Positions 54,538 to 58,423 of a stretch of DNA of 64,000 nt are shown here, piece after piece. Source of the DNA: an uncultured delta proteobacterium (GTDB lineage Bacteria; Desulfobacterota; Binatia; UBA9968); assembly GCA_963840855.1 (NCBI GenBank), contig CAWJBB010000003.1:43991-107990 (forward strand), given 5' to 3'. A model generated the notes under the pieces. It saw only the letters and a list, made by a program, of their open reading frames with translations. It did no database searches and was not told the DNA's origin. Position numbers and translations under genes: made by a program. The first letter of the stretch is position 1, and each line of letters starts with the position of its first letter.

Positions 54538-55576
54538 TTGAAAACATTGTTGATAACCGGCGGTTGCGGTTTTATCGGAAGTCAATTCGTCAAACTCGTC
54601 CTGCGCGAGCGCCCACAGTACCGCGTCGTCAATCTCGATTTGCTCACCTACGCCGGCAATCCGGAGAATCTCGCCCACGAGGAACGGGCGCGCGACCCAG
54701 GCGCTTATCGCTTTATTCACGGCGACATTGCCGACACCAAGCTCGTGCAGGAAACACTCAGTGGCGAACAGGCGGACGCCATCATAAATTTTGCCGCCGA
54801 GACTCATGTAGACCGGAGCCTGCTCGACAGCGCGCCCTTTCTCCGCACCAATGTCGAAGGCACTCGGGTCCTGCTCGACTGCGCTAGCCGTCTCGGTATC
54901 CAGCGCTTCTTGCAGGTATCGACCGACGAGGTCTACGGCTCCCTCGAACCTTCGGATCCACCCTTTACGGAAGAGCCATCCACTTGAGCCGAACAGTCCC
55001 TACGCCGCTAGCAAGGCCGCCGCGGATTTGCTGGTTCGGGCGTACCATAAGAGCTATGGCGTCCCGGCTATAATTACCCGCTGCGGTAACAACTATGGTC
55101 ACTATCAGTTCCCGGAGAAGTTTTTACCGCTGTTCATCACCAATGCGCTGGACGATCGGCCGCTGCCGCTTTATGGCGACGGCCTGCAGATCCGCGATTG
55201 GATTCATGTAGAGGATCATGCTCGGGCATTGCTGTGCGTGCTGGAGGACGGAGCTGTCGGAGTGACCTATAACGTCAGCGCAAACGGCGAACATACCAAC
55301 TTGCATATGGCGGAACGGATTTTGAGCCTCATGGGCAAGTCATCGAGCCTGCTGCGCTACGTTACTGACCGGCTAGGGCACGATCGGCGTTACGGCATCG
55401 ATGCGAGCAAGTTGCGTCGCGAGTTGGGATGGCAACCACTTATCTCTCTCGACGACGGTTTACTGGCGACCATCGTTTGGTACCGCGAACAAAGGGGTTG
55501 GTGGGAGCGCATCAAGAGCGGCGAGTATCGCAAATATTACGCGCAACAATACGGCGACCGCCTGGGCGGAAAATAA
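54538..55576 (+). CDS. rfbB: dTDP-glucose 4,6-dehydratase (frameshift near 54975)
   Basis: TGGCGFIG, LLTYAGN, AAETHVDRS, STDEVYG; then PNSPYAASK, QFPEK, GHDRRY in the next frame. Confidence 0.95.
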
Positions 55577-55606
55577 GCGCCAGCGCCGCTGGCGCGCTCT
55601 CGTGCT

Positions 55607-55751
55607 TGTTCAAATCGTTCAAAACGTTCAAGACGTTTAAAACTAAGACTCACCACGAAGGCACGAAGGACGCGAAGAAGAAAATCTGACCACAGAGAGC
55701 ACAAAGTTCACATAGGGCGCGAAGCGCGCAAGATAAAAGCTTCGTGACCTC
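55607..55751. repeat. Left half of the composite repeat interrupted by IS110
   Basis: ttcaaatcgttcaaaacgttcaagacg-tttaaaactaagact-caccacgaaggcacgaaggacgcgaag...cttcgtgacctc. Confidence 0.75.
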
Positions 55752-55802
55752 CTTCGAAAATTTGGTTGGGGGTGGGGTTCAGGCTGCTTTAGCCATGGGT
55801 GA

Positions 55803-57053
55803 CTATTCCACCTCCTGTCCGAGTTCCCGGAGTCTGCGGACATGGTAACGAATACGCTGTTGAGGGTTGAGTTTATCAAAGTAGTCAACACCGAGATCCT
55901 TGTAGGGTTTGTCATCGCGGAGCATAAGATAGACGGTAACCAACAGGCTGTGTTTAACCGCGCCGATCGCACGCTTTTTCCCACGTCGGCCTGCCAGACG
56001 ATGGTACTGCGCTTTGAAATAGCTGTTTTTGGTGCGCACCGCCGCGTGCGCCATCTCGGTAAGCACCGCGTCGATGTGACGGTTGGCAGCGGGGGTTTTG
56101 CCGCTGCGCCGTTTGCCGGCGCTTTCATGATTGCCGGGACACTGGCCCGCCCAAGAGGCGAAGTGCTTGTGGGTAGGAAACCGGCTCATGTCAGTTCCGG
56201 TTTCCGCCAACAGCGCTTGGGCTCCACGTTCCCCCACCCCCGCAACCGCATCAAGCTGCTCTACCGCGGCACGAAACGAAGGGGGCGCTACCGCCCCCAA
56301 CCGCTCGCTTACGCTGGCGATCTCCTTTTCGAGAAAGTCGTATTGTCCAAGCAACTGCCGCAGCAAAAAGCGGTGATGCTCGGTCAGCTCTCCCTCCAAA
56401 GCGCGCTGCAATTCGGGGATCTTGCCGCGCAGCTGGCGCTGGGCCAGATCCGCCAACACTGTAACGTCTTTCTCTCCAGCGATCAGCGCCTCGATCATCT
56501 TGCGTCCCGACGCCCCCATCACATCACTGGCTACCGAGCCCAGCTTAATGTTGGCTGTCTCCAACACCTTCTGGATGCGGTTGTCCACCGCATTTCGCTG
56601 CTGCACCAGCTTGGTCTGTTGACGCGTCAGATCCCGCAGCTCGCGCTGCTGGCGGTCGGGAACAAAACTCGGCCTCAACAGCCCACACTGCAAAAGCTGC
56701 GCGATCCACTCCGCGTCCTTCATATCGGTCTTTCGCCCAGGCACTTTCTTCAGATGCTGGGCGTTGATCAGCAACAGCTTGAAATGGCCTTCGAGCAGGT
56801 TGAACACCGGCTGCCAGTAAATCCCCGTCGACTCCATCGCCACGTGGGTCACCCTCTGCTCGGTCAACCACTGGCGCAGCTCTATCAGATCGGCCGTCAT
56901 CGTGCCGAACTTACGCAGCGTGCTCTGCACCGTGCCATCCTTCGCATTGAGGATACGCACGCACGCCACGATCAGTTTTTTGTGCAGGTCCAACCCGCAC
57001 ACGCGCGCATACAAGGCCTGCAGCCCCGCAGGGCTACTGTTCTTCTTGCTCAT
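55803..57053 (-). CDS. IS110 family transposase/recombinase
   Basis: GLDLHK, AMESTG, RKTDMKDA (DEDD); GVGERGAQALLAETG; WAGQCPGNHESAGK (Tnp-domain Ser); start re-called at 57053 after an AAAGGGGGAG RBS. Confidence 0.96.
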   Translation of the reverse strand: MSKKNSSPAGLQALYARVCGLDLHKKLIVACVRILNAKDGTVQSTLRKFGTMTADLIELRQWLTEQRVTHVAMESTGIYWQPVFNLLEGHFKLLLINAQHLKKVPGRKTDMKDAEWIAQLLQCGLLRPSFVPDRQQRELRDLTRQQTKLVQQRNAVDNRIQKVLETANIKLGSVASDVMGASGRKMIEALIAGEKDVTVLADLAQRQLRGKIPELQRALEGELTEHHRFLLRQLLGQYDFLEKEIASVSERLGAVAPPSFRAAVEQLDAVAGVGERGAQALLAETGTDMSRFPTHKHFASWAGQCPGNHESAGKRRSGKTPAANRHIDAVLTEMAHAAVRTKNSYFKAQYHRLAGRRGKKRAIGAVKHSLLVTVYLMLRDDKPYKDLGVDYFDKLNPQQRIRYHVRRLRELGQEVE

Positions 57054-57064
57054 AGACGCTCCCC

Positions 57065-57298
57065 CTTTCTTGCGGCACACCCAGGGGACATCCGGCATAT
57101 TCGATTCTCCTTCGCGTGCTCTCGTCGGCAGATGACGAGGCGACAATCTGAGGCGCCGAAGGATGTCCTGGATCACACTTCGTGTCGGGCTCTCTCGCGC
57201 CACTCACTTATCGATCTCTTCGCTGGGGCGCCGCTCCCTGCTTACCGCATCTGCCTCCCATTTTCATCTTCTGCGGGCGAGCGTAAGATCATGAATCA
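57065..57298 (-). ncRNA. Candidate bridge RNA in the IS110 non-coding end
   Basis: About 240 nt upstream of the transposase, with stems and the guide-like segments GACACGAAG and TCCTTCG that match the target. Confidence 0.6.
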
Positions 57299-57303
57299 CT
57301 TCG

Positions 57304-57462
57304 TGGTAAAATTCTGATCTCTGTGTTCTCCGTGCCTTTGCGGTGAATAATCTTTTCCTTCGTGTCCTTCGTGGTAAATTTTGTTTGCGCCCTTTGCGCT
57401 CTTTGTGGTTAAATTCTTTCCTACGGTTTGAACGATTTGAACGGCTTGAACTGCTTGAACGG
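57304..57462. repeat. Right half of the composite repeat interrupted by IS110
   Basis: tggtaaaa...ctctgtgttctccgtgcctttgcggtg...cttcgtgtccttcgtggtaaa...ttgaacgatttgaacggcttgaac. Confidence 0.75.
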
Positions 57463-57472
57463 GGTGCGCAAA

Positions 57473-58423
57473 GTGTCTGATCAATTTCTAGTTACCGGCG
57501 GCGCCGGTTTTATCGGTTCCCATTTAGTTCGCAGGCTGCTCGCCGACGGCGGGCGGGTTCGGGTAATCGACAATCTCGCCACCGGCAAACGGGAGCGGCT
57601 ACGCGACCTGGAAGGCGCTATTGAATTCATCGAAGGTGATCTGGCTGATCCATCCACGTGCGAAAACGCTCTTAGCGGCATTGATTGCGTGCTCCATCAA
57701 GCCGCCGTTCCTTCGGTGCAACGCTCCGTCAAAAATCCCATCGAAACCAACAAAGCCAATATAACGAGCACACTCAATTTGCTCGAAGGCTGTCGCAATC
57801 ATCGAGTTCGCCGCTTCGTGTACGCCTCGTCGTCGTCGGCCTATGGCGATACCCCCGTGCTACCAAACGCGAAGACATGCCGCCAAATCCATTATCGCCC
57901 TATGCGCTCCAGAAGTTTGTCGGCGAACGCTACTGCCAGCTGTATTTCCGTCTTTACGGCTTGGAAACGGTAAGCCTGCGCTATTTTAACATTTTTGGCC
58001 CGAGCCAAGACCCCTATTCCGAATATTCCGCGGTGATTCCGAAATTCGCTACCCGATTGCAACGAGGAGAATCGATCGTCGTCTACGGCGACGGGGAGCA
58101 ATCGCGGGACTTCACCTACGTCGACAACGTGGTCGAGGCTAACATCCTCGCGCTACGCGCGCCGCGCGCCGCAGGCTCTGTTATCAACGTCGGTTGCGGC
58201 GAACGGATCACGCTCAACCGGCTCATCAAAATCCTCGAAGAAATCCTGGAAGTGCAAGCCACGGTCGATTACCAGCCGGCGCGCCCGGGCGACGTGCGCG
58301 ACTCCCTCGCTGATATCAGCCTCGCCCAAGATTTATTAGGGTACCAACCAAAAGTAACGGTAGCGGAAGGATCTACGGCGCACCGTCACCTGGTTCGCCT
58401 CCAACGCTGACGCGCAAAAATGA
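57473..58423 (+). CDS. NAD-dependent NDP-sugar 4-epimerase, WbpP-like (frameshifts near 57865 and 58370)
   Basis: TGGAGFIGS, HQAAVPSV, ASSSSAYG; PLSPYALQK, RYFNIFGPSQDP...AVIPKF, SRDFTYV, GDVRDS. Confidence 0.9.

Follow-up and report, generated by a model that had tools for sequence, protein, structure and literature searches.

The stretch of DNA considered here (hereafter the window) consists of 64,000 nucleotides (nt) of contig CAWJBB010000003.1 (positions 43,991 to 107,990, forward strand) from an uncultured delta proteobacterium of the Binatia lineage UBA9968 (assembly GCA_963840855.1), whose genome comprises 7.1 Mb in 93 contigs. Positions 55749-57298 of the window are occupied by an insertion sequence (IS) of 1,550 bp, including the copy of an AG core at its right end, which is read from the minus strand, as are all the features of the element and its flanks given below unless stated otherwise. 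It contains the recombinase gene P0001 (55803-57053), whose product of 416 amino acids combines an N-terminal DEDD RuvC-like domain (PF01548, DEDD_Tnp_IS110, residues 19-167, E = 1.4e-28) with a C-terminal Transposase_20 domain (PF02371, residues 266-351, E = 2.3e-18), i.e. the domain pair of the IS110 family, and matches the NCBIfam model NF033542 'IS110 family RNA-guided transposase' with 281.9 bits at a cut-off of 140. The motifs GLDLH, AMESTG, KTDMKDA and HESAGK, which we take to carry the catalytic residues, are visible in the protein. The solved structures that match it represent two sequences, the recombinases of ISCro4 (E = 3.2e-12) and IS621 (E = 1.1e-11), with the best stretch in the C-terminal domain; because only these match, and weakly, P0001 is, judged by its sequence, a distant relative of the enzymes studied so far. 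The gene is preceded by a left end of 245 nt (57298-57054) and followed by a right end of 54 nt (55802-55749). We are confident, short of certainty, that this is an active-looking IS110-family IS, the left end of which encodes a two-domain guide RNA (bridge RNA) upstream of the gene for its DEDD/serine recombinase, and we establish here, besides the protein family, its copy number, boundaries and type of empty site, the covariation of both left guides, and four helices of the predicted RNA. The bridge-RNA mechanism was first described in 2024 (Durrant et al., PMC11208160; Hiraizumi et al., PMC11208158). A first-pass annotation of the window had proposed an IS110 element whose 5' non-coding end carries a guide RNA, and both the Pfam domains and the covarying guides bear this out.

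Three full copies of the element, 100% identical and each with an open recombinase frame, are present in the genome at different sites, namely the copy in the window and a further two on contig C2. A truncated fourth copy at C17:23335-24504 matches bases 1-1058 of the element, which cuts the recombinase at about residue 256, and continues with sequence resembling the interior of the short derivatives described below before a normal right end. All four copies have the same exact ends with unrelated sequence outside them: each starts with TGATTCATG (at 57298 in the window) after (A/C)CCACGAAG and finishes with ...AAATTTTCGAAGGAG (at 55749), the four right flanks differ (GTCACGAAG, GCACGAAG, TCCACTTCG and GCACGAAG), and the sequence further left is different at each copy. 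The two full copies on contig C2 (C2:16691-25356) lie in opposite orientation, 4.3 kb apart (about 5.9 kb from start to start), and a single short derivative precedes the first of them by about 1.2 kb. Inversion of the stretch between the two full copies could be possible.

In the four copies as well as in the relatives with 80-94% protein identity in which a right end is present, the right end reads ...TTTTC(G/T/A)AAGGAG, and the flanks diverge only beyond it. Because copies and relatives all end in ...AAGGAG before their flanks diverge, the right boundary lies at 55749 and not at 55752. The letters common to both junctions in all copies and relatives are AG only, and the element therefore spans 55749-57298 with AG as its core. 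The CTTCG that the first-pass annotation took for a repeat at both junctions is this core together with a chance likeness of the left flank (CACGAAG) to the right end (TCGAAGGAG), and the right boundary, the empty site CCACGAAGGAG and the circle junction predicted from it are each 3 nt off. As is typical of the IS110 family, the element has neither terminal inverted repeats, as a comparison of its ends TGATTCATG... and ...TTTTCGAAGGAG shows, nor a target duplication that exceeds the short shared core. It does carry a subterminal inverted repeat, the left arm of which (GATGAAAAT, 57260-57268) is the reverse complement of the conserved ATTTTC of the right end (55756-55761, 7 nt from the right end); ATGAAAA of the left arm is invariant in the family (alignment A1, columns 1-7), and (A/G/C)TTTTC stands directly before five variable nucleotides and the core in nearly all right ends listed. 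The repeat measures 6-8 bp and is asymmetric in position, with a distance of about 30 nt to the left end but 7 nt to the right end. A small hairpin seen by eye near the left end (57290-57270) follows a conserved T-N4-CATG(A), and its sequence varies among relatives, e.g. GAGC..GCTC, GAGGGT..ACCCTC and GCCGAA..TTCGGC.

Covariation of the guides with flank and right end

Three sources supplied relatives of the element: of 90 genomes of its family, 9 gave a match at E <= 1e-40; of 401 genomes of the phylum, 19 gave one at E <= 1e-60; and a set with one genome per species yielded 153 relatives, with 79 loci kept. The final set consists of 50 distinct 5' ends that carry the invariant ATGAAAA. The left target guide is the segment GACACGAAG (57186-57178), followed by two further nucleotides, UG (57177-57176), which match the first two bases of the element. 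Across the 50 5' ends this position of the RNA holds 32 different sequences, and the last 7 nt of the guide match the element's own left flank with no mismatch in 34 of the 50, with one mismatch in 8 and with two to four in 8; by our own arithmetic about 2-3 matches in 50 would be expected by chance. The left donor guide is CGAAGGAG (57107-57114), which lies just after a conserved AGCACGC and has the same sense as the right end ...TTTTCGAAGGAG. It agrees with the element's own right end without mismatch in 31 of the 50 elements, with one mismatch in 12 and with two or three in 5, the remaining 2 loci having no right end.

Both relations were scored with anchored positions in 21 elements that passed the mismatch filters, a set in which duplicates were kept (both guides are identical in L115 and L097). 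The left guide matched its own flank at 7.00 of 8 positions, against 3.14 for non-cognate flanks, and the donor guide matched its own right end at 7.29 of 8, against 4.15; in neither case did any of 5000 permutations do as well. A scan of every column of the RNA against every flank position, in a separately de-duplicated set of 21, returned the same guide columns with z of 4.5-6.8. Furthermore, the two bases after the left guide match positions +1 and +2 of the element in 18 and 19 of the 21 elements, respectively, where about 6-7 would be expected. The two bases after the donor guide gave no signal against the right flank by eye and none among the top 60 of the column scan. As in the bridge-RNA systems of Durrant et al., a left target guide has the sense of left flank plus core and a left donor guide that of right end plus core, and both covary with the DNA they resemble. 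The first-pass annotation had named GACACGAAG as the left target guide against the host's CACGAAG repeat and had called for a covariation test of 57157-57186 with the insertion flanks; the test upholds this guide across the 50 5' ends and fails for the other segment named there, TCCTTCG, which is taken up below.

The guide has changed together with its target even among close relatives. An 84% identical relative (L016/L074) combines the guide GACACAGAG with the flank ACCACAGAG, an 87% relative (L058) has the guide GCAAAGGAG and the flank TCAAAGGAG, and an 80% relative (L017/L061) has the guide GCCACGAAG; the new target motifs of the close relatives are CACAGAG and CAAAGGAG. In a genome of the same family, a 52% relative (L021/L025) carries the guide GGGCAAAG at the flank GCGCAAAG, and the donor guide of L025, CAUAAGAG, stands against its right end TTTTCATAAGAG. 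These two loci (genome G009, about 1474-2712 plus flanks) constitute a second IS110 lineage, and their guide, together with the flanks GCGCAAAG/A(C/G)GCAAA(A/G) (here and below the slash marks the insertion point), points to the GCGCAAAG sub-motif of the same composite repeat that surrounds the element in the window. Many family members were also seen to lie directly after a right-end-like sequence ATTTTC-N5-AG (left flanks of L058, L088, L029, L123 and L072), and in L058 the target guide is nearly identical to the donor guide. True head-to-tail tandems occur in one Dehalococcoidia record (L064 and L065 are the loci listed), and one element is directly followed by the left end of a short derivative (right flank of L057).

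For the right side of the target we found a candidate guide in the segment AUAAGUGAGU (57202-57211), which forms the 5' side of the target loop and precedes the left guide. Taken over the family, its agreement with the reverse complement of core plus right flank reaches 5.05 of 8 positions, against 3.54 for non-cognate flanks (0 of 5000 permutations). In a comparison with windows shifted along that flank it scores 5.0 where they score 3.0, the cognate position being the higher in 17 of 20 elements; the match is 8/8 in L025 and L071 and 7/8 in L102. The same segment compared with the core plus the element start scored 2.10 against 2.13, the sole scored comparison of this kind. If AUAAGUGAGU is the right target guide, the top-strand guide precedes the bottom-strand guide in this RNA.

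The data so far also bear on an explanation in which the recombinase reads the structure or sequence of the repeat DNA itself, e.g. a hairpin of inverted CACGAAG arrays, the match with the RNA being secondary. Repeat arrays do form inverted arms around the site, no RNA segment specifies the right flank well, and a target stem-loop acts as a second layer of specificity for ISPpu10, according to the preprint that describes it (10.64898/2026.03.19.712850). However, guide and flank change together across the 32 distinct guides and in close relatives whose proteins are 84-87% identical, and one of the genome's own copies, at C2:17941, sits at a site whose right flank is without the repeat (TCCACTTCG...). 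We consider it very improbable that recognition of the DNA is the main determinant of the site, and RNA guidance remains the reading that we prefer.

Structure of the predicted RNA

Four helices were tested on 31 diverse sequences (alignment A2). RNAalifold, run on a first MAFFT alignment, returned the hairpin P_a only, and the other three were spotted by eye and then tested. Helix P_b pairs 57217-57212 (AGAUCG) with 57175-57170 (UGAUCC) and closes the target-binding domain; its duplex energy is -4.6 kcal/mol, against -2.4 for non-cognate strands (0 of 300 permutations), with 77.8% of the cells paired and double changes in 3 of 5 pairs. Inside this domain lies P_a (UGGCGC/GCCCG, 57202-57197 with 57190-57186), for which the energies are -3.8 against -2.5 kcal/mol (0 of 300 permutations), with pairing in 94.8% of the cells and double changes in 4 of 5 pairs; its U-G pair, present in 30 of the 31 sequences, fits the recombinase-sense strand. 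The long-range helix H joins 57168-57160 (GGACAUCCU) to 57093-57086 (GGAUGUCC) and closes the donor-binding domain, at -13.4 against -6.1 kcal/mol (0 of 300 permutations) and with double changes in 9 of 9 pairs. The hairpin P_d (CUCGUC/GACGAG, 57139-57134 with 57126-57121), which had already been noticed in the first reading of the sequence, is paired in 78.8% of the cells and has double changes in 6 of 6 pairs. Taken jointly, the four helices are paired in 76.9% of the cells, against 61.4% after shuffling, and show changes on both sides in 147 cells, against 55; their covariation score is 0.415, against 0.189 in shuffled alignments (0 of 500) and at most 0.172 in slid controls. They describe two nested domains, in which P_b encloses a 5' side, P_a and the left target guide, and H encloses a 5' side, P_d, and AGCACGC with the donor guide and 13 nt thereafter. 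This is the plan of a bridge RNA, with two loops that each have a closing stem and an inner stem-loop.

The 5' side of the donor loop is UCGGCGCCUCAGAUUGUCGC (57140-57159). The variable portion of this segment is a same-sense copy of the left-end DNA that lies just 5' of GATGAAAAT (57298-57269), and this likeness covaries across the family: the longest common run is 5.97, against 4.49 (0 of 2000 permutations), and 814 of 2000 permutations do as well in the reverse-complement control. Among candidates for a right donor guide this is the sole one that covaries; another, GAAUC after the left donor guide, matches GATTC in this element when compared by eye but fails in relatives, and was rejected.

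These results can be set against the anatomy as it was first drawn, in which the element is bounded by CTTCG, its empty site is CACGAAGGAGG, the target loop is closed by GGCGC/GCGCC and holds a TGT/ACA hairpin, GACACGAAG and TCCTTCG are the two target guides, and agattgtcg reads the donor. Every string of that drawing is where it was said to be, i.e. CTTCG at 55752-55756 and 57299-57303, GACACGAAG at 57186-57178, TCCTTCG at 57163-57157, and both GGCGC/GCGCC and CTCGTC/GACGAG. In addition, TCCTTCG is the exact complement of CGAAGGA, and the GGCGC/GCGCC duplex would have -11.2 kcal/mol in this element and forms in about two thirds of the relatives (65.8% of cells). Nevertheless, that closing stem shows a double change in 1 of 5 pairs, 65 of 300 permutations match its energy, and it competes for its 5' strand with the local hairpin P_a; the TGT/ACA hairpin is paired in 39.8% of the cells. 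The 5' strand of helix H takes in both the ACA of this hairpin and the TCC of TCCTTCG, three bases of which thus lie within a covarying helix.

As a right target guide, TCCTTCG (57157-57163) is unsupported: its zone matches the right flank at 2.00 of 8 positions, against 1.94 for non-cognate flanks, and 2267 of 5000 permutations are as good. The GA that it was meant to read belongs to the element once the boundary is corrected; GAG occurs in every copy and relative, and the covarying donor guide matches it. Another role considered for TCCTTCG, that of a top-strand guide for the donor right end, was rejected as well. It matches CGAAGGA of the right end at 7 of 7 positions here and in L030 (longest common run in the whole family, 34 of 3000 permutations as high), and it stays fixed in relatives whose right end has changed to TCTAAGGAG or TCAAAGGAG. 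The segment agattgtcg, which lies with GCGCC inside UCGGCGCCUCAGAUUGUCGC, contains a motif, AUUGU(C), that is conserved regardless of the donor end (about 8 relatives compared by eye, unscored), and the donor guide is CGAAGGAG instead. As the empty-site counts given below also favour CCACGAAG/G(T)CACGAAG, we hold it very improbable that the original drawing is right in its exact form, and retain the two-domain RNA closed by P_b and H.

The target repeat, the empty site and short derivatives

The left flank of the element, ACCACGA followed by the AG core (57299-57307, the core being 57300-57299), is the last unit of a CACGAAG repeat, and the right flank GTCACGAAG (55740-55748) is the next unit. 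Further members of the repeat, CACGAAGG, are found at 55650-55677 (plus strand) and 57375-57355 (minus strand). The insertion is sequence-specific, with all four copies in the genome lying after ACCACGAAG or CCCACGAAG, and (A/C)CCACGAAG or a near variant forms the left flank of these copies and of the short derivatives. The empty site has the form CCACGAAG/GYCACGAAG: uninterrupted CCACGAAG followed by GCACGAAG occurs 47 times in the genome and followed by GTCACGAAG 7 times, where about 0 would be expected, and the empty site first proposed, CCACGAAGGAG, occurs 8 times against 4.5 expected. In the sister genome G014, which belongs to this genus, ...CTTCGTGAC/CTTCGTGGTAAAAT... stands uninterrupted, and its continuation resembles the right-hand flank in the window; it is located upstream of the first gene of the neighbouring pair and is not an orthologous empty site. 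The spacer of the same gene pair in G014 is filled with repeats and without the element, although the exact repeat unit is not alignable there, and in the genome G012 the spacer of this pair was found without repeats. Joints across the element among the contigs of public sequencing runs were considered as empty sites and rejected, as their sides match over 21-28 letters with other letters between them, which assigns them to other repeat loci.

CACGAAG units form 62 arrays of at least two units, 236 units in total, and CACCACGAAG occurs 112 times in the genome against 16 expected. To call the repeat abundant, as was done at first, is fair, but the scale is that of tens of arrays. In a coding test, 122 of the 236 arrayed sites fell inside long stop-to-stop frames, which is weak evidence, such frames covering 86% of the genome. 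The surroundings of the element (55600-55680 and 57355-57470) appear as a composite intergenic repeat of tandem 8-9-mers, TTCAAAnCG, CACGAAGG and GCGCAAAG, arranged as inverted arms around it, and dozens of occurrences of the flanking repeat blocks were found in each of the four other genomes of the genus that were searched.

That the supposed flank is itself a part of the element, carried along without any targeting, is scarcely credible: the same (A/C)CCACGAAG does precede every copy, but CCACGAAG occurs 429 times in the genome, mostly without an element, is typically followed by another repeat unit (by TGATTC in 9 of the 429), has different sequence further left at every copy, and has uninterrupted look-alikes in G014.

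The same sites also receive much shorter elements. A whole-genome search with a 29-nt string of the left end, allowing at most 6 substitutions, gave 17 places, namely the 4 IS copies and 13 others, 12 of which were aligned (C30:89754 was left out as degenerate). None of the 12 lies in the window; they are found at C4:11640, C7:1369, C30:186116, C45:22984, C50:11616, C67:67807, C79:62952, C81:29308, C2:16691, C32:7463, C35:22246 and C35:16103. They begin with roughly the first 46 nt of the left end, and lack both the recombinase gene and the guide region; 10 of the 12 represent one type of about 235 bp, and the two on C35 another. At least 7 have a recognisable right end GTATTT(T)C...AG, which resembles GTATTTTCAAAGGAG with about 15 nt kept and is followed by (G/T)CACGAAG, the insertion being at CCACGAAG/GCACGAAG sites. 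The left neighbour is CCACGAAG in 10 of the 12, and CACCCCGAAG and GGATACGAG in the other two. From their sequences, these short elements look like non-autonomous derivatives that keep the donor ends only, and are candidate passengers of the bridge system.

A model of the element and its relation to known systems

In the model that we favour, the target-binding domain, closed by P_b with P_a inside, would present the left target guide GACACGAAG on its 3' side. This guide has the top-strand sequence of the left flank plus the AG core and would therefore pair with the bottom strand. Insertion would thereby be directed to the point after ...CACGAAG at which one unit of the host's tandem intergenic repeat, CACGAAG(G), meets the next. 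The donor-binding domain, closed by H with P_d inside, would present CGAAGGAG, which equals the element's own right end plus core. By analogy with the work on IS621 and on seekRNAs, the RNA is presumably made, bound by the recombinase, and used to bridge a circular donor and the target at the AG core. With less certainty, AUAAGUGAGU (57211-57202) may give this element a weak reading of the right side of its target, the two bases that follow the left guide may meet the incoming element end, and the short derivatives, with their 46-nt left end and right end of about 15 nt, may be moved in trans.

A number of observations weigh against this model. Guide positions -8 and -9 mismatch the flank in all four copies of the genome, and L018/L062 lie at ACTACGGAG with an unchanged guide that matches at 5 of 7 positions, a partial exception. 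The left junctions in the table of 50 elements were assigned from the best match of the guide within some 40 nt, a procedure that is partly circular, and the homologs are kin, so that the permutation figures overstate independence. The right-guide candidate matches at only 4 of 8 positions (GUG..U) in the element of the window, and part of its signal in the family comes from the invariant complement of the core. A right donor guide, i.e. a complement of core plus element start, was not seen in a search by eye, with no scored test of the donor loop, that covered the stretch upstream of P_d and the 13 nt downstream of the donor guide, and that also set AUUGU beside the conserved CATG. The fold of the whole left end, which had been suggested as a check, is no better than that of shuffled sequences (z -0.86, with 42 of 200 shuffles as stable), and an Rfam scan of 55000-58000 with E up to 1 gave no match, although Rfam 15 may hold no bridge-RNA model. 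As to expression, no sigma-70-like promoter was found in 55600-57480 of the linear copy (0.5 expected), no circle junction was seen among the contigs of public runs, and the contigs from three soil metatranscriptome libraries that cover parts of the element, among them one of 348 nt that covers 57066-57307 and continues into another repeat flank, may be DNA or read-through.

We also put forward, tentatively and as something we would sooner doubt than believe, a joint reading in which the IS110-type clade with proteins of about 416 amino acids has an upstream-encoded bridge RNA as in IS621 that is wired differently. In the target loop the top-strand guide would then precede the bottom-strand guide, as it does in IS1111 elements; the latter guide would extend 2 nt past the core into the element and make the handshake at the left junction, not the right; the right donor end would be read through an 8-10-nt RNA copy of left-end DNA that adjoins the short subterminal inverted repeat, not at the core; and short elements without RNA and recombinase would ride in trans. 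A different wiring of the clade is the only part of our results that might be new, and we claim no novelty for it, as Fig. 6d, Extended Data Fig. 10 and Supplementary Data 2 of Durrant et al. may already show the RNA of this clade; the accessible part of the preprint 10.1101/2024.06.21.599552 holds nothing on guide order. The mechanism, its programmability, repeat targets and natural retargeting are in print (PMC11208160, PMC11208158, PMC11187229, 10.64898/2026.03.19.712850), and the suggestion of a new target, an abundant repeat family, overstates the novelty in view of the published cases of IS621, ISPa11, ISPpu9 and ISPpu10. The element is a well-documented example of a known mechanism, not a new one, and leaves the known principle unchanged.

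As such, it offers a clean natural example of bridge-RNA programming in soil bacteria, in which one lineage has been retargeted stepwise to CACGAAG, CACAGAG and CAAAGGAG, and a second, 52% identical lineage has another sub-motif of the same composite repeat as its target. For the engineering of bridge recombinases the clade supplies about 30 distinct guide-target pairs from nature, along with a loop wiring that is apparently different, and for genome biology the element presents a repeat family as a landing pad for itself and its non-autonomous derivatives.

Of the known systems, IS621, as described in PMC11208160 and PMC11208158, resembles the present element in its DEDD and serine recombinase, in a guide RNA located in a long left end upstream of the gene, in a left target guide of 7 + 2 nt with top-strand sense and a left donor guide built alike, in a 2-nt core common to donor and target, in natural targets within an abundant intergenic repeat (repetitive extragenic palindromic, REP, sequences for IS621), and in two pseudo-symmetric loops, each with an inner stem-loop. 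It differs in that the protein is distant (the match to the PDB entry has E of about 1e-11) and has a chain of 328 residues, against 416 amino acids here, and in that its core is CT and not AG. Furthermore, according to the same descriptions, the bottom-strand guide lies 5' of the inner hairpin in IS621 (A50-U58 before G77-G80) and 3' of it here, and the 2-nt extension, found here on the left guide, where it matches the first bases of the element, is on the right guide there. A right donor guide, described for IS621, was not found here by eye, whereas a 6-8 bp subterminal inverted repeat is present here.

With the IS1111-type seekRNA elements ISEc11, ISPa11 and ISKpn4 (Siddiquee et al. 2024, PMC11187229) the element seems to share the order of the guides, the segment complementary to the top strand coming first, and it shares with that group subterminal inverted repeats and natural retargeting between relatives, as well as, with ISPa11, which targets REP, a repeat target. 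In contrast to the IS1111 group as characterised there, its non-coding region lies upstream and not downstream of the gene, its repeat has 6-8 bp and not 11-13 bp with terminal extensions of 7 and 3 bp, and its protein has 416 and not 330-350 amino acids; it thus falls outside that group, which is marked by subterminal repeats of 11-13 bp and a downstream non-coding region. An upstream non-coding region is found in ISEc21 and IS110 sensu stricto, for which natural retargeting has also been reported (ISMch6), and 416 amino acids fit the 395-455 of the subgroup containing IS110 itself (PMC11187229). The top-strand match of ISEc21, as given in the same paper, stands 3' of its bottom-strand match, the opposite of the order that we infer here. 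Finally, ISPpu9 and ISPpu10 of Pseudomonas putida are likewise described as IS110-family elements residing in repetitive extragenic or conserved intergenic sequences with several copies per genome (PMC12288879, 10.64898/2026.03.19.712850); the element described here belongs to another host phylum and has taken another repeat as its target.

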